A stretch of 64,000 nucleotides of DNA from Octopus vulgaris (taxonomy: Eukaryota): contig OX597823.1 in the NCBI GenBank assembly GCA_951406725.2, positions 108,872,001-108,936,000 of the forward strand, written 5' to 3'. Below are positions 12,191-63,749 of this stretch, piece after piece. Numbering within the stretch: the stretch's first letter is position 1; each line of letters opens with the position of its first letter. The notes beneath the pieces were generated by a model. It ran no database searches and was not told the origin of the DNA. It worked only from the letters and a program-made list of their open reading frames with translations. A program made the translations under genes and the position numbers.

Positions 12191-12356
12191 ATACATATTA
12201 TGTTTGGGCTTTGTTTGGCTCGTGAGTGGACGGGAGACACGCTGGTGCACTGCCATGAAGATTGTAATTTAAGAGATGGAACCCGGTACCTATTTTCTTC
12301 AGGGTATATGTCTCTTGCCTCTTGTGAGGTTAGGGGATCTAACACAAACTTATATC

Positions 12357-12651
12357 TATTTCTTTACCACCTACAAGGGGCTAAACACAGAGGGGACAAA
12401 CAAGGACAGACATAGGTATTAAGTCGATTACATCGACCCCAGTTCGTAATTGGTACTTAATTTATCGACCCCGAAAGGATGAAAGGCAAAGTCGACCTCG
12501 GTGGAATTTGAACTCACAACGTAACGCAGACGAAATACCGCCAAGCATTTCGCCCGGCGTGCTAATGTTTCTGCCAGCTCGCCGCCTTGTCAGCTCGCCG
12601 CCTTGCCAGCTCGCCGCCTTGCCAGCTCGCCGCCTTGCCAGCTCGCCGCCT
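12357..12651 (-). mobile_element. SINE family A, full copy with Tx1-like tail and five tandem copies of its 5' 16 bp
   Basis: Colinear with 28587-28817 in reverse; (TGCCAGCTCGCCGCCT)x5 at 12572-12651. Confidence 0.9.
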
Positions 12652-13772: not shown

Positions 13773-13787
13773 TCATATATGTATATA

Positions 13788-13847
<60 letters not shown>

Positions 13848-14000
13848 TAGTTGAATGAATTATCCTAGTATGGATAATTCGGCTAACCGATACCTGGGTA
13901 GCAAATTCACGTCAGAAAAACACGGTTGAAGCTACATGCCAAGGGCAGAGATCACATGCTTTCGTGTGGAAATTTGTGTGTTGTTTAATACAAATAAATG

Positions 14001-14373
14001 AAAGAATGGAGTTGAACGACGATTTAACAAAATTCCTTTATTCTCGACATATGTTTCGAAGGCTGCATATTCCTAATTTCGAAGGAATAAGGGGTGCATT
14101 ATGCTGCCTTCTCATCAGGAGAGACAAGGAACTTATGTCAGCATCAAGATGAACAAAAACTCTTAGATGACTGCCCACTCTATCGCATATGCGACTCCGA
14201 GTGGGCAGTCATCTAAGTGTTTTTGTTCATCTTGATGCTGACATAAGTTCCTTGTCTCTCCTGATGAGAAGGCAGCATAATGCACCCCTTATTCCTTCGA
14301 AATTAGGAATATGCAGCCTTCGAAACATATGTCGAGAATAAAGGAATTTTGTTAAATCGTCGTTCAACTCCAT

Positions 14374-14378
<5 letters not shown>
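14001..14378. repeat. Long inverted repeat (180-bp arms, 18-bp spacer), probably inverted Penelope-like pLTRs
   Basis: 14001-14180 is the reverse complement of 14199-14378 with one mismatch seen. The ORF track gives the same peptide on both strands. Confidence 0.95.
14257..14337 (+). ncRNA. Type I hammerhead ribozyme motif (mirror copy on the minus strand at 14042-14122)
   Basis: TCTC-CTGATGA-GAAGGC...GCCTTC-GAAA-C-ATAT-G-TC-GAGA: stem I TCTC/GAGA, intact CUGAUGA and GAAA core, stem II GAAGGC/GCCTTC, minimal palindromic stem III, GUC triplet ending at 14333. Confidence 0.8.
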
Positions 14379-14429
<51 letters not shown>

Positions 14430-14528: not shown

Positions 14529-14532
<4 letters not shown>

Positions 14533-14870
14533 ACAAAATTGGACAAGAACGCAAAACATCCAAATAGACGATACAAAAACACGGACGGGTCATTCGAAGC
14601 CTTTAATCTTCAGTCAAGAACCGGATCATCCTCGCAATTTCAGCTGATTAATCTTGAGATTGCTCCAATCTGGCCAGCCTCAAGGAAAAACTAAGCTAAG
14701 AGCATTAGATTCCTTGGAAAAAGGATCGAATGTATACGAAACAAGGACAGAAAAACGGACGATGTTACACGAATATAAATACAAAAAGAACCCCAAAAAT
14801 AATACGAATATAAATACAAAAAAACAATAATAATAACAACAACAATAATAAGAATAAGAACAGGACGCGA
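14529..14870 (-). mobile_element. Companion repeat family F (unclassified); other copies at 19610-19737 and 34313-34585
   Basis: Shared TAATCAGC(C/T)GAAATT...TTGACTGA(A/G)GA...CTTCGAATG...TGTATCGTCT...TTGTCC among the three copies. The strand assignment is arbitrary. Confidence 0.7.
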
Positions 14871-17980: not shown

Positions 17981-18567
17981 GTTAGTTAGTTAGTTAATTT
18001 GGCTCAAAAGCAAATAGCAAGGCCATGTAGGGGGACATGGAGTTAAGTACAGAGTGGTGTTCATGTAAAGAGTTCAGGCCACTTGAGGTCAAGGGAGGCT
18101 TTGAACAAAGCGGTCGTCGGCATCTTCACCATCTCGTCTGGCAGCTTGTTCCACGGATCCGCAACCCGGACGGAGAAAGCTCCTCTCCTTCGATTGAGAT
18201 GAAATCGTCGCAGGTAGAGCTTTTCGGAATGACCCTGCAGCCGACGCTCTGGAGCAGGAGTGAAGAACAGCTCTTTCGAGAGGTTACACTTTCCGCTTAT
18301 GATGTTGTGGGCGAGAATGAGATCACCACGGCGGCGGCGTTTTTCAAGAGAATAAAGGTCGAGCGTCCTCAGCCTTTCTTCGTAGGACAAATTTTTGAGA
18401 CCATGAACCATGCGGGTAGCCAGCTTCTGGACTCTTTCGAGATGCTGTATGTCTTTGAGGAGATAAGGAGAAGAGGCTTGAATCCCATACTCCAATATGG
18501 GTCTCACCAGCGTGACATAGAGTGGTAGGAATATGGCTGCTGTGAGCATTCCGAATGACCGTCGAAT
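17981..18567 (-). mobile_element. 5'-truncated CR1-clade LINE (C-terminal part of ORF2, 3' UTR and (TAAC)n tail)
   Basis: Uninterrupted IRRSF..LPLYVTLVRPILEYG..LERVQKLATRMV..LSYEERLRTLDLYSLEKRRRRGDLI..FSVRVADPWNKLP..FKASLD in ORF 18061-18699; the upstream part of that ORF is only microsatellite. The minus strand ends AATTAACTAACTAACTAAC. Confidence 0.92.
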
Positions 18568-18639
18568 GTGTATGTGTATGTGTGTAAGAGTGAGTGCATC
18601 CATGTATGATTGTATGTCTGTGTGTGTGCCTGTGTGTTT

Positions 18640-18870
18640 GTGTGTGTATGTGTATTTGTGTGTGTGTGTCACTGTGCTTGTGTTTATCACCTTCCACACA
18701 TTGAAAACCGGTGTTGGCTTCTTTACGTCACTGTAAAACTGCGGTTCGGCAAAAAAGTGTCAAATAGAATAAGTACCAGGTTTTACAAAATCAATACTGG
18801 GGTACATTCGTTCGACTAAACCCTCCAAAGCGACACCCCAGCATGGGCGTAATCCAATCATTGAAGCAAA
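18640..18870 (+). mobile_element. SINE family B, 3' half
   Basis: GGTGTTGGCTTCTTTACGTCACTGTAA...GGTTCGGCAAAA...AGAATAAGTACCAGG...TTCGACTAAA...CCAGCATGG. Confidence 0.7.
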
Positions 18871-19413: not shown

Positions 19414-19609
19414 TAATAATAATAATAATAATAATGATGATGATGATGATGATAATAATAATAATAATAATAACAACAACATCGAAGAATACCTGAGGAA
19501 TGAGAACCCAGGTTCGAAATTTCCCCAAGACACCGATGTAGGCTGGAGGGTATATCAGCCGAAACGTTGTGTTAACAACAAACAAGATGAGGACAAATAT
19601 CCGTCGAAT
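19034..19609. repeat. Inverted repeat (about 133-bp unique arms, 19034-19166 and 19477-19609) around a tRNA-like fragment and (AAT)n; arms carry a minimal hammerhead-like motif
   Basis: The arms are reverse complements with scattered mismatches. The minus strand of 19071-19114 reads ACAC-CTGATGA-A-GGCAG...CAGCC-GAAA-CG-TT-GTGT. Confidence 0.85.
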
Positions 19610-19737
19610 TAATCAGCCGAAATTGCTACGATGATCCGGTTCTTGACTGAAGATTGAGGGCTTCGAATGTCCCGTCCGTGTTTTTTGTATCGTCTTCTAA
19701 GTGTTTTGCGTTCTTGTCCCATTTTGTATTTTTCTAC
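19610..19737 (+). mobile_element. Companion repeat family F fragment, directly abutting the inverted repeat
   Basis: Reverse complement of about 14529-14651. Confidence 0.75.
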
Positions 19738-28586: not shown

Positions 28587-29157
28587 GGCGGCGAGCTGGC
28601 AGAATCGTTAGCACACCGGGCGAAATGCTTAGCGTTATTTCGTCTGCCGTTACGTTCTGAGTTCAAATTCCGCCGAGGTCGACTTTGCCTTTCATCCTTT
28701 CGGAGTCGATTAAATAAGTACCAATTACGCACTGGGGTTGATGTAATCGACTTAATACGTTTGTTTGTCCTTGCTTGTCCCATCTGTGATTAACCCCTTG
28801 TGGGTAGTAAAGAAACAGGTATTTCATCTGCCGTTACATTCTGAGTTCAAATTGCGCCGAGGTTGACTTTGCCTTTCATCCTTTCGGGGTCGATTAGATA
28901 AGTACCGGTTACGCACTGGGGTTGATATAATCGACTTAATCCGTTTGTTTATCCTTGTTTGTCCTCTCTGTATTTATCCCCTTGTGGGTAGTAAAGAAAT
29001 AGGTATTTCGTCTGTCGTTACGTTCTGAGTTCAAATTCCGCCAAGGTAGATTTTGCCTTTCATCCTTTTGGGTTCGATTAAATAAGTACCAGTTATGCGC
29101 TGTCCTCGATTGTCCCCTCTATGTTTAGCACCCTCTGGGCAATAAAGAAATAAATAA
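28587..29157 (+). mobile_element. SINE family A trimer: one tRNA-like head plus three tandem body/tail units of about 184 bp
   Basis: GGCGGCGAGCTGGCAGAATCGTTAGC (A-box-like) and GAGTTCAAATTCC (B-box-like). Units restart at GGTATTTC(A/G)TCTG at about 28818 and 29002. The central block resembles the conserved Deu/Nin SINE domain (recalled, unverified). Confidence 0.9.
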
Positions 29158-31692: not shown

Positions 31693-31943
31693 TATTGTTG
31701 TATTTAGGAATGGTCATTTTGCCAGTTTAGCCAATAAAAGTAAGGAGAGACACACAAATAAGAAAGAAGAAAGCAAAGGACCACTGATGAGGTCACAGGA
31801 GTGTGACGAAAGAGCTCTGGCCGAAATAAGATTAAGACTAATGTAAAAAATGAATAACGTTGAAGCAAAGTAACACCAAATATATAGTGCGTGTGTTTTT
31901 ATTGGCTAAACTGGCAAAATGACCATTCCGAAATACAACAATA
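31693..31943. repeat. 47-bp inverted repeat (one mismatch) enclosing a hammerhead motif
   Basis: 31693-31739 is the reverse complement of 31897-31943. Confidence 0.9.
31778..31822 (+). ncRNA. Minimal type I hammerhead ribozyme motif
   Basis: GGACCA-CTGATGA-G-GTCAC-AGGAGT-GTGAC-GAAA-GAGC-TC-TGGCC: stem I CCA/TGG, intact core with one extra purine, stem II GTCAC/GTGAC, palindromic GAGCTC stem III, CUC triplet. Confidence 0.7.
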
Positions 31944-34312: not shown

Positions 34313-34583
34313 GTTTTTTCCGTCCTTGTTTTTGTATACATTCGCTGCTTTCTTCCAAGGAAATTAATGCTCTTAGCTTAGTTTTTACTTGAGGCTGACC
34401 AGATTGGAGAAATCTCAAGTATAATCAGCCGAAATTACAAAGATAATCTGGTATTTGACTGAGGAAAGAAAACTTCGAATGACCTGTCCTTGTTTTCGTT
34501 GTATCGTCTATCTGGATGTTTTGTTGTCCCATTTTTGTGTCATCTAACTGTCCGGATGTTTTCCGTTCTACTCTCATTTCGTA

Positions 34584-34661: not shown

Positions 34662-35033
34662 ATAGAATGGCTGTATACTGTCAATCTAACAAGAACGTGG
34701 CAGTAGGTGGTACACCACCGCTGTATAGCCCTAGGAAGCATCGAACGCCTCCTGATGGCTTTGACACATTTTTCCCTGTGTCCTTATATACATATACGAA
34801 GGGGAGACAAACACCCCCGGCTGCCGGAACTGCATCTAGGGACACGTGTTTCAGGATCCTGAAACACGTGTCCCTAGATGCAGTTTCGGCAGCCGGGAGT
34901 GTTTGTCTCCCCTTCGTAGGGAAAAATGTGTCAAAGCCATCAGGAGGCGTTCGATGCTTCCTAGGGCTATACAGCGGTGGTGTACCCCCTACTGTCACGT
35001 TCTTGTTAGATTGACAGTATACAACCATTCTAT
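34662..35033. repeat. Spacer-less palindrome centred on GGA|TCC (34856/34857); 177-bp arm versus 195-bp arm with an 18-bp indel
   Basis: Near-perfect reverse-complement arms. The extra GTGTCCTTATATACATAT at 34778-34795 is present only in the left arm. The ORF track shows mirrored peptides. Confidence 0.95.
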
Positions 35034-54406: not shown

Positions 54407-55470
54407 GATTTTCAAGGCAAAACAGCAGCCGAAATTCATGGCGAAAAAAGAAGGAAGTCTTGAAGGATTGCTCCTCTTCAAATTCGAAATGGACAATCTG
54501 GGTGCCAATGATTCGGACTGGTCGTTTTGAGGTCTTAGATGAACCCCGGTCAGTACGGCTAACTTCCGCGTCTACATAGGACAAAGCCGGTTGTGCACGC
54601 CATGATTCTCGAGGATCGCCGAATTTCAGCTACAGTCATAGGTGAGACTCTGGGAATCTCCCGCGAAAGAGTTGGCCACAACATCCACAACATTCTGGAC
54701 GTGAGAAAACTTTCCGCGAAATGGGTGCCGAAATGCCGGAACGCAGATCGGAAGCGCATCAGAGTGACGATATCAAAGGCGATTTTGGACCTGTTTGCAG
54801 GAGGAGAGGCTGATTTTATGGCTCGTTTAGTCACCATGGAATTTGGCTTCGTGATCATGATCCCCAAACCAAACAGCAATCAATCAAGTGGGGCCACAAC
54901 GATTCATCGCGTCCCAAAAAATTTCGGACCCAGAAGTCAGCTCGAAAGATTCAAGCCTCAGTGTTCAAGGGCAAAGACGGAGTACTTCTCATAAAATACC
55001 AGCCAAAGAGTCACACCATCAACATAGAATACTACATGTCTCTGTTGAACATGCTACATGAGGCTTTGAAGCAGAAACGCTGTGGAAAGCTGAGTTGTGG
55101 TGTTCTGCTTTTGCAGGACAATGCACCAGCCCACACAGCACATGAAACTACGCGACTTTGGTTTCGAATTGGTAGAACATCCAGCTTACGCACCTGACTT
55201 GCCTACCTCCGACTATCACCTTTTTCCACAACTGAAGGGACATCTACAGGGAACGAAATTTTACTCCGATTCGGAAGTAATCGCTGCTACAGAGGCCTGG
55301 CGGGAGGCCCAACTTTCCGAGTTCTTTTTACAGGTTTTAGGAAAACTGAAGAACCACTGCAATAATTGTGTGAATCTGAGAGCGGAATATAGGTTGAATA
55401 AAAATCATACTTAACTGATCTTGCTGTATTTTCTTTTACCCAAAGGCAGAAATATTTCAGCACCCTCTCG
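53616..55470 (+). mobile_element. Near full-length decayed mariner (DD34D) element interrupted by a microsatellite
   Basis: TA|CGAGGGAATGCTGAAAAGTTCC and an inverted TATTTCAGCACCCTCTCG end. ATG at 53784 gives MEFGKTEAQAVMN; after the repeat come QGKTAAEIHGE, LEDRRISATVIGETLGISRERV, RKLSAKWVPK, RLVTM, LLLQDNAPAH and HPAYAPDLPTSDYHLFPQLK, with several frameshifts. Confidence 0.92.
53824..54406. repeat. About 580-bp (ATT/GTT)n microsatellite inside the mariner coding region
   Basis: Directly visible. Confidence 0.97.
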
Positions 55471-55692: not shown

Positions 55693-55982
55693 CGTGCTCA
55701 ACTGGTACTTATTTTTTTGTCCCCAAAAGGATAAAAGGCGAAGTCGACCTCGGACGAAATGCCTATTTCTTTACTAACCACAAGGGGCTAAACACAGAGG
55801 GGACAAACAGATTAAGTCGATTACATCGACCCCAGTGCGTAACTGGTGCTTAATTTATCGACCTCGAAAGGATGAAAGGCAAAGTCGACCTCGGCGGAAT
55901 TTGAACTCAGAACGTAACGGCTGACGAAATGCCGCTAATCATTTCTCCCAGCGTGCTAACGATTCTGCCACGGCGCCGCCTT
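55693..55982 (-). mobile_element. SINE family A, full unit plus a partial second unit
   Basis: The core is present twice (55693-55753 and 55820-55900); minus-strand junction GTAAAGAAATAGGCATTTCGTC. Confidence 0.85.
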
Positions 55983-56302: not shown

Positions 56303-58300
56303 GTTCTTTCTTTACTGGCCACCATGGCCGAATACAAACATAGAGGACGATACACAAACAAGGGACAGTGAGATTAAACGTGTAAACAGCAAACAAACAC
56401 AACGATTCACAGAGAGATTATATTAACAATATGCTTCCTCAATAGGAGGGAGAAGGTGACAAAAGAAACCTCTCCCACTTTGGACCCCTTAACACTAATA
56501 GCCCCCCAGGAAGGCACCGTCTCTACTACCTTCCATCTGGCCTACAGGCGCACACTTAGAGCAGGCCTATTCACGCGGGCTAGTCTTGCCACATTCTCCC
56601 ATCTTTCAACGAACTTACTGGGTGACAGTAGCTCCCTCTCCAGTCTCACTTTCCCATTCAAGTGCAACCTGAAAAAGTTACTGCGGCCTTGGCCACAGAA
56701 GGTATCCGTCTTCAACTTTTTCAATCGCGTCCACCAAGCCGGATCCGTCATACACGTGACAATAGCTGTTAACAAAGCTCCACAAGTCAGCAATATGCGA
56801 ACACTGTACAAGGGTATGCAGAACAGTTTTATTGCTCCGCATGCATCTCAAACATGCCTGACTGACAGCACACCCGTGCCTGTAGACCTTATCTCGAACC
56901 GGCAGCGCCCCCTGGTAGCACTGCTAGGCCAGGGATTCCTGGAAATTATCCATAGTTCCGGGCCAAAAATGCTCAGGGAGAACCTGTTGATTCCCTATCG
57001 ACGCTCAGGACCTCTCCGAATACGTCGTCGCTCTTGCCCTCCACTAATCCCCTATAGAGCTCCAAGGTGGAACTTGGATCGCATTACCGACCGCATTTCT
57101 CGACTGGCTGTGGAATGTGAGCGTTTGGAGTCACTCTAGGTGCAAAGTGCCGTCTCAGTCTACGCCTGATCCATGACTGTAGGTCCGTCAATATGATGAG
57201 CTGCGGAAAAGTGCATTCAACAAACGGCGACCACACTTGCCCCATTAAGGTATCGCTGGAGATGTCGCAGCCTCAGCGCATGTCTGTGCATCCTCAGCCT
57301 CGGCATGCCCAGTCCTCCAAGCAACGAGTGCTGACTGAAAATATACCGTCTCACAAGCGATACCTGTCCCTTTCACAGGAAGCGGAAGAACAAACGCACC
57401 AGCCTGTTCAGCCACGAAGAGGGGCAGGGGACCACAGTCAGCCAGTTGCATATGAAGGACCGAATTTTCAGGGACAGCTTCCTCTCGGCCCATTTCTGGG
57501 TGAGACTGGCGATCCTGTCTATCACTTCACCCCAGTTATTGTCCACTTAGATATCCGGACCGAACCATACCCCTAGCAACTTAAGAGATCCTTCCGTTCA
57601 GAGCCCCACCACACTGTCAGTTGGAATGGGCCTGCTTCTCCAGGTGCCGAGCTGTAGGCCTGCTGACTTCTGGTTGATCATTACTCCTGTCACCGCTTCA
57701 TATTCCCTTAGTGAAGTGCGGCCATCTCGATTTTTGAGATGTCCGACACTATCACAGTGACGCCGTCAGCATACGTCAACACGAACCATCCGCATCCCAG
57801 TTCACGGGGGATGCTCCTCGAAAACTCCAGCTTCCGCAGTAACGCCTCGAGTACCAGTATGTAGAGACGGTGTGAGAATGGGCATCCTTGACTGACCGAA
57901 CGTGCGATACTAAACGATTCCGAGAGGTGGCCATTTACTTTGTCCACCGAACAGATGTCGCTGCAGATTGCAGCGATCCAGCTTCTGGAAACAGGACCGA
58001 AATCAGCCGTCCTGAGGACAGCCTCCAAGTACAGATGGTCGACCCTATCAAAAGTTTTCAATTGATCAAAATGGATCAGGGACCTACCCATGCCAGGTTC
58101 TTTACCAACCCTCTCTATGATGTATTGCGTGAGATAGAGGTTGTCGTGTATAGTTCTGCTGGTAATAGCGCAAGTCTGCGCACCACCCACCAGTCGGTCA
58201 ACGACAAGCGCCAGCCTCTTTGCTAACATCTTGGCCAAAATTATATAATCTGTATTTAGCAGAGTTATGGCCTAAAGTTATCAACAATGTCCCCCTTGTT
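56303..58300 (-). mobile_element. 5'-truncated decayed Tx1-clade (L1 group) LINE: RT, C-terminal zinc-binding region and 3' UTR
   Basis: DNFRP..AKMLAKRLALVVDRLVGGAQTCAITSRTIHDNL..DQLKTFDRVDHLYL..VNGHLSESFSIARSVSQGCPFS..YADGVTV; a Cys/His remnant near 56800-56860; end of ORF at 56542; the 3' end GGCCAGTAAAGAAAGAAC abuts (TAT)n. Confidence 0.88.
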
Positions 58301-63309: not shown

Positions 63310-63500
63310 TTTTCTGCTCTAGGCACAAGGCCTGAAATTTTGGGGGAGGTGGCCAGTCGATTAGATCAAGCCCAGTTCGCAACTGGTACTTAATTTATCG
63401 ATCCCGAATGAATTAAAGGCAAAGTCAACACGGCGGAATTTGAACTCAGAACATAAAGCATTTCGCCCGTCGTGCTAATGTTTCTGTCAGCTCGCCGTCT
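63310..63500 (-). mobile_element. SINE family A with the alternative tail
   Basis: Core and head (CAGCTCGCCG) of family A; tail AGGCACAAGGCCTGAAATTTTGGGGGAGG instead of the Tx1-like tail. Confidence 0.8.
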
Positions 63501-63749
63501 TCTATCTTAATATTAAATGGCAGAAGTCACAAAGAGATTCCAGGGCCAAGAGTTCCTGGCACCTGTGAGTGTCATTGATGAAGCCGTGGGTCCTTCAGCC
63601 ACTTTGTGCTTCGTGCCAATTAAAAATATGAAAAAAACGTAACAAAATATCTTAACTTTCACACCCAGATGATATGTACGTAAGTATAAAGGAACTGATA
63701 CCCATATGTACTAACGCAGACAAACGATTATAAATGCATACTCACACAC

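Follow-up and report, generated by a model that had tools for sequence, protein, structure and literature searches.

The fold-back at positions 14001 to 14378 of the 64,000-nucleotide stretch of Octopus vulgaris DNA analysed here (the window) is a head-to-head pair of 5′-truncated pseudo-LTR (pLTR) copies of an abundant Hydra-like Penelope retrotransposon, one with a reverse transcriptase (RT) and a GIY-YIG domain, lodged in a (TA)n microsatellite. Our overall account, i.e., a short head-to-head pLTR pair in (TA)n that likely arose by priming from both cut ends of the target at two internal sites on the element's RNA, and whose hammerheads are predicted to be inactive, is one that we hold with good confidence. 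The sequence-only reading had overlooked that the fold-back is one of thousands of pLTR copies of a Penelope-like retrotransposon; the locus is not special, and is ordinary transposon debris.

Much of the structure originally described at the locus was borne out. The 180-bp inverted repeat is real, its arms (14001-14180 and 14199-14378) being complementary save for the single mismatch reported, a T/T at 14161/14218 in which T14218 is the derived base. The 18-nt spacer between them (14181-14198) indeed contains a palindrome of its own, TCGCATATGCGA, and a hammerhead core is present in both arms. The left arm extends past 14001 as element sequence, and since it is pLTR sequence down to 13846, the insert is 13846-14378, with (TA)n adjoining it at both ends (Table 1). 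The longer arm (B) matches the 3′ pLTR of copies bearing RT and GIY-YIG at 89-97%, and the 3′ end of the shorter arm (A) falls a few bases short of site A, one of two arm ends defined below.

Table 1. Features of the insertion and its flanks, in window coordinates.
Feature	Positions	Strand	Remarks
(TA)n microsatellite, left insertion flank	13775..13845	.	
B arm: pLTR copy, family positions 1-335, ending at 3′ site B	13846..14180	-	
Type I hammerhead, left arm; core start 14118, predicted cut after C14046	14033..14131	-	mirrors right-arm motif
Spacer: element 5′ end near the 5′-truncation hotspot plus two extra bases, giving TCGCATATGCGA	14181..14198	+	
A arm: pLTR copy, family positions 1-180	14199..14378	+	
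Type I hammerhead, right arm, with branched stem II extension; predicted cut after C14333	14248..14346	+	
Palindromic stem III (ACATATGT)	14325..14332	+	2 bp in the monomer, 7-8 bp between two molecules
(TA)n microsatellite, right insertion flank	14379..14428	.	

The family to which the arms belong was traced through the 2.8-Gb assembly (227 contigs, the window lying on contig C10). A search with the arm produced 1,649 candidate matches, the 40 that were scored yielding 58 matches at 95-100%, and an exact 21-mer of the arm occurs 1,494 times in the genome. Upstream, sister copies run on through a 3′ UTR and into an ORF whose end is GIY-YIG-like; the genome has 16,608 candidates for it, and the match of this end to PF01541 is weak (E 0.004, below the Pfam cut-off). 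In six copies that were examined, stretches of 591-833 aa are open and contain GLYRDD. Both the RT region with this motif and the FFYIG domain are to be found in sister copies, outside the window. One copy (L054), about 3.8 kb in length, retains the whole layout of inverted piece, 5′ pLTR, ORF and 3′ pLTR. Pfam gave no useful match for three long ORFs and no RT match, and PDB none for the one long ORF searched; the RT region has 431 homologues, with a named one from Argonauta among the 120 listed. Judged from the sequence, the family thus shows the features of an EN+ Penelope-like element (PLE), namely RT plus GIY-YIG, a partial tandem of pLTRs with an inverted 5′-truncated copy, and a pLTR hammerhead. 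The ORF is under purifying selection, dN/dS lying between 0.05 and 0.43 in all 21 pairwise comparisons of its copies, and this in an ORF that lacks the linker cysteines discussed next.

Assignment of the family within the PLEs turned on these cysteines. The Hydra clade is defined in PMC8557442 by a DKT motif, a C-terminal CxxC plus CxH and the absence of CCHH, and the octopus family has SDKT in the two copies L054 and L055 and, by eye, CGVC...CMH and CCIC...CKH at its C-terminus and no CCHH. The linker motif CxCX5C was found in none of 27 family translations, about 20 of which are in frame through the linker, where an Asn-rich tract replaces the cysteines. Among the 120 listed of the 431 homologues, all 84 with a detected YIG motif have a cysteine linker of Hydra type. 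At the N-terminal RWK position L054, the only aligned copy covering the region, has RWL and the homologues RWR. Our first label, Neptune, was rejected when the supplement alignment showed the homologue linkers to be of Hydra type: they match the Hydra rows of Fig. S2 and not those of Neptune or Nematis, and neither the CX2-5CxxC linker nor the CCHH of those two clades was seen. The family is therefore Hydra-like and is not filed as a member of Hydra, because the defining linker motif fails. Asn-rich ORF inserts are known from rotifer PLEs (PMC3846280). Despite its lost linker cysteines the family still targets (TA)n, on which 124 of 132 arm 3′ ends abut against a background of 9%, and in this respect it runs counter to the suggestion that linker cysteines and microsatellite targeting go together. 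A short way upstream of the linker-less element lies L054:665-1072, a fragment of another PLE with a CxC...CP..C linker, and linker-bearing families therefore coexist in the genome; mobilisation in trans by them is possible.

The architecture of insertions was examined on one chromosome, using all 98 matches of the exact 21-mer on contig C1, which represent 81 sites. At 55 of these the arms form head-to-head pairs, at 26 there is a single arm, and at none do arms lie tail to tail. Arm 3′ ends fall at two fixed places in arm coordinates, site A at about 186-193 and site B at about 336, which are about 143 nt apart and both upstream of the ATG (in L054). Once two likely duplicated sites (L113 and L140) were dropped, 53 pairs were left, and 50 of them join an A arm to a B arm (in one, L085, the B arm is split), the others being three A+A pairs, with no B+B (p 3e-12 where 50% would be expected). 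An anchor on the B side found, by eye, one head-to-head B+B and one tail-to-tail pair among the 100 matches listed; the 21-mer anchor found 17 pairs among its 98 matches on C1. Older subfamilies (65-78% identity) show A+B in several cases, and the window locus is itself an A+B pair. The fold-back, in short, is the family's normal product.

Of the 50 A+B pairs, 31 have arms that each reach beyond the other, nine have near-symmetric 5′ ends (within 12 nt), against 3.4 by permutation (p 0.005), and ten are nested. The arms overlap in 34 or 35 pairs, and in 16 of 51 the B arm stops at or beyond position 190. The junctions of the 53 pairs comprise 26 with alignment overlap, which we read as microhomology, five blunt ones, 19 with short inserts and three with long gaps. 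At the 5′ side, the ends of 14 among 56 truncated copies (a mixed sample) cluster at -18 to -16, a hotspot that falls on the A of CTCATT, a sequence that we take to resemble the initiator consensus; this hotspot, beside the spacer at the locus, is likely the transcription start. An internal promoter is described for Penelope (PMC2377424). A role of hammerhead cleavage in setting copy ends gained no support, the cut site not being enriched among arm 5′ ends (three of 136 at 131-141, where about four are expected), and the region between sites A and B has no strong structure (z -1.6).

These regularities suggest a route of insertion. The GIY-YIG domain would cut both strands of (TA)n, after which one target end would prime at A and the other at B, within the 5′ UTR of an RNA starting at about -17. 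Both cDNAs would be extended toward the RNA 5′ end, through an uncut hammerhead, and their far ends would then be joined, with a small loss of sequence or by way of microhomology; in the locus copy the A arm would have extended to about -15 and the B arm to +1. The A+B pattern agrees with twin priming of this kind, from a pair of internal RT starts, and a PLE protein has been described in vitro that cleaves and extends both strands and has two internal RT starts, with the hammerhead dispensable for insertion (PMC11167929). As most A+B arms overlap, a single shared RNA would need strand displacement, and otherwise two RNAs would be used. Paired arms might be expected to resemble each other more than they resemble other copies, but the 23 pairs compared did not show this: an arm usually had a copy elsewhere at least as close to it as its partner, and this counts against a single shared template.

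Of the other explanations, the one that survives best concedes the same element and has the fold-back formed by self-priming (snap-back), with either an antisense template or the first cDNA being copied, which is how PMC3846280 explains the head-to-head repeats with junction palindromes of rotifer Penelope elements. The nine near-symmetric pairs and the ten in which A is nested in B are what snap-back would give, and the locus itself is almost nested, the 18-nt spacer being all that its A arm has in addition. In the 31 pairs of 50 in which the A arm runs more than 12 nt further 5′ and the B arm 143 nt further 3′, however, neither arm could have been copied from the other, and simple snap-back copying is therefore excluded for those. 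Nor does it suit the 16 of 51 A+B pairs that overlap barely or not at all, and alone it does not predict A+B in 50 of 53; we regard it as unlikely for the locus. Since the arms are mostly non-nested, the A+B rule speaks more for priming at both ends of the target than for self-priming, and it ties the two RT start sites seen in vitro in PMC11167929 to a genomic structure, where PMC8557442 and PMC3846280 describe the formation of inverted PLE ends as open. Extended to the family as a whole, our proposal is that each insertion is primed from both cut ends at two fixed RNA sites 143 nt apart, with A+B as the default and not a chance by-product of snap-back, by a Hydra-like enzyme that still hits (TA)n though it has lost the linker zinc-finger motif proposed to direct it there, a generalisation toward which we lean somewhat. 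If it is true, the genome holds a large natural record of Penelope-type insertion chemistry. Judged by title and abstract, no paper was found with a count of an A+B rule or a linker-less Hydra family, within a search to which Repbase, Dfam and subscription journals were outside scope.

The pair had been called very young, and for its family it is: its arms differ at 1/180 positions (0.6%, 95% interval 0.01-3%), against a median of 3.1% in 23 sister pairs on C1, of which only one is lower (0/76), and the nearest other copies are 98.9% identical. The word "young" is fair, with the proviso that polishing of the assembly could have blurred the arms. The spacer is not foreign, consisting of the family 5′ end, TATCGCTATGGACTCC, and two extra bases. 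These create the palindrome, and they correspond exactly to a union of that family sequence with its reverse complement. The exact 18-mer occurs once in the genome. Positions 14187-14192 are uncovered by the contigs of the four top-ranked sequencing runs (three guessed to be DNA and one of unrecorded kind, all used as contigs; among the runs listed, none is on record as RNA), and these contigs neither bridge nor refute the locus junction, a coverage hole that proves nothing. Being unique and uncovered by the four runs, the spacer reflects either a template switch at this place or an error of the consensus.

Just such a two-base union would result if the consensus had been drawn from reads in both orientations, and on this argument assembly or polishing might have produced, if not the whole fold-back, then its palindromic centre and near-perfect arms. 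The uniqueness of the 18-mer, the uncovered positions and the restriction of the two-base union to this locus among 40 tight junctions (by eye) all speak for it. A chimera, however, would not obey the A+B rule or end at family-specific sites beside (TA)n, sister pairs exist whose arms have diverged by up to 5.6%, and short-read contigs of two runs (X1 and X2) hold the same type of inverted-to-sense junction in a related copy; taken in this broad form, the artefact is very improbable. An artefact confined to the two spacer bases is more plausible than a false fold-back: the former has a real chance, if somewhat short of even, and the latter hardly any. The tight junction geometry is common to 40 fold-backs in the genome. 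Identical fold-back junctions were also observed at C1:6844048, C1:182894668, C5:46678614, C19:38737774 and C20:50963146, i.e., on different contigs, and may reflect the copying of a fold-back master or, alternatively, joining by microhomology that has recurred at the RNA 5′ end.

The hammerheads were the reason for interest in the locus, and their identity, with the predicted cut after C14333, stands. On the plus strand the right arm has CUGAUGA at 14261-14267, GAAA at 14322 and a GUC ending at C14333, an intact core that the left arm mirrors on the minus strand. Stem I (14257-60/14334-37, with a distal part at 14248-53/14341-46) is fully Watson-Crick at the locus, and stem II (14268-73/14316-21) has 6 bp and a branched extension, so that on sequence grounds the features of a putative type I hammerhead (a CUGANGA, GAAA and NUH core with stems I-III) are present. 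Stem II, its extension and the sub-hairpin noted within it can all pair; the suggestion that extension and sub-hairpin are alternatives did not hold, stem II, most of the extension and the sub-hairpin core being predicted to form together. The ribozyme region folds far better than its shuffles (z -3.9, 0/200). "Fully canonical", as the motif had been described, is right for the core and wrong for the rest, stem III being 2 bp closing a palindromic loop, and Rfam giving no hammerhead at either threshold; weak Rfam miRNA matches reflect only the hairpin shape and were set aside.

Folding calculations, whose energies leave aside tertiary contacts, Mg2+ and help from proteins, place stem III of the monomer at P 0.01 and the whole active fold at about 0.004. 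Only as a two-molecule dimer is the active fold predicted: two molecules form by default a double hammerhead through the palindromic stem III, with an MFE of -65.8 against 2 x -29.5 kcal/mol. The hammerhead would thus need a second sense copy, and as the arms are head to head, no single transcript of the pair carries two. For the same reason an antisense arm precedes the ribozyme on both strands. That this arm, said to be transcribed first on the plus strand, could sequester the ribozyme agrees with the modelling, in which the constrained active fold has P of about 1e-88 in the full fold-back; in any read-through transcript a 180-bp duplex would enclose the hammerhead. The most that could expose it is transcription of the A arm from a residual internal promoter. 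The fold-back had been put forward as the best candidate for an active ribozyme here, a claim that finds no support in view of the low monomer probability, the dependence on a dimer and the leading antisense arm on either strand, and the hammerheads at the locus are predicted from these models to be inactive.

The family's hammerheads are nonetheless numerous, a pattern with the long stem II having 2,655 matches in the genome, and both arms carry a full hammerhead in 12 of the 53 pairs on C1. In an alignment of 30 distinct copies, which were selected on the core and are related, 91% of stem cells are paired and 18 are two-sided, a result that 0/500 shuffles reach; the pairing and some compensatory changes lend modest support to conserved stems. 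The sub-hairpin register proposed earlier is kept in 77% of cells, and a shorter one common to the subfamilies in 87%. Single PLE hammerheads showed no cleavage in vitro in the account of PMC4209133, where opposite-strand pairs 100-700 bp apart were also described (Cervera and de la Pena 2014), and the PAc hammerhead was cleaved after addition of its own protein (PMC11167929). The reading in which an active, regulated ribozyme, or a hairpin RNA of use to the host, is made from the locus draws on the intact core with its fully Watson-Crick stem I, on stems retained across subfamilies with some compensatory changes and on an A arm that begins near the putative transcription start, where a short sense transcript could avoid the antisense arm. 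It is nevertheless a weak case and highly improbable, given a monomer that hardly reaches the active fold, a conservation that is a property of the transposon family, not of this young copy (and was measured in an alignment selected on the core), and the two full hammerheads of those 12 other sampled pairs on one chromosome. The locus is a poor place to search for an active ribozyme; the family is of more use, its insertion pattern and missing linker motif being of modest added value.

Other repeats were observed in the window. A second, unrelated hammerhead-like motif lies on the plus strand between 47-bp inverted repeats at 31693-31943, with its core at 31784, a 6-bp stem II and a GAGCTC palindrome after GAAA, and is probably another PLE pLTR. 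A high-copy repeat beside (TA)n (4,715 candidates) occurs at 14531-14760 on the minus strand, 150 nt from the fold-back, and again at 19608-19731 and 34315-34540; it has a core-like CTGAAGA...GAA motif and is possibly the end of a different PLE. There is an older fold-back of a different family at 34662-35030, with a self-match of about 88%, a small indel, a spacer-free centre and an end at (TA)n. A dispersed repeat forms a 184-bp tandem at 28636-29102 and is found too at 1-115, 12352-12588, 55753-55982 and 63355-63501. The segments 18064-18759 (-), 57711-58271 (-) and 54563-54991 (+) are, we presume from inspection by eye, decayed fragments resembling LINE reverse transcriptases and a mariner-type transposase.

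Comparison with known systems places the family among familiar relatives. With the PLE pLTR hammerheads of PMC4209133 the octopus motif shares type I topology, a long helix II, a short palindromic helix III, dependence on a dimer and the occurrence of opposite-strand pairs, and it differs in a stem II extended by a sub-hairpin, with which it escapes the Rfam models. Non-LTR retrozymes (bioRxiv 10.64898/2026.07.22.740005) are likewise short, non-coding and PLE-derived, with a type I hammerhead, but are described as direct tandem arrays, whereas the pair at the locus is inverted and dispersed; with an inverted pair and no tandem array at the locus, this identity was rejected. The Hydra-clade PLEs of Craig et al. 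2021 (PMC8557442), including Hydra-1_Obim of Octopus bimaculoides, have in common with the family a C-terminal GIY-YIG, DKT, CxxC/CxH, a GIY-YIG core without CCHH-type cysteines, a pLTR hammerhead and (TA)n targeting. The octopus family departs from them in its Asn-rich tract in place of linker cysteines and its RWL for RWK, and the hammerhead listed for Hydra-1_oBim is of another sequence, the family having a 40-nt branched loop II. In L1 twin priming, both ends of the target prime on the element's RNA, with an inverted 5′ segment as the result; the octopus family, in contrast, would prime internally at two fixed sites, and its cDNAs often overlap. The inverted pLTR with "tail" of Penelope, Poseidon and the Adineta elements (PMC3846280, PMC8557442, PMC11167929) resembles the octopus insertions in its inverted 5′-truncated copy, its junction palindromes, the extension on one end only, the Asn-rich ORF inserts and the two RT start sites. 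The end-to-end distance is given as 30-40 nt in those elements and is about 143 nt in the octopus family, in which both sites lie upstream of the ATG and the A+B pairing could be counted, at 50 of 53.
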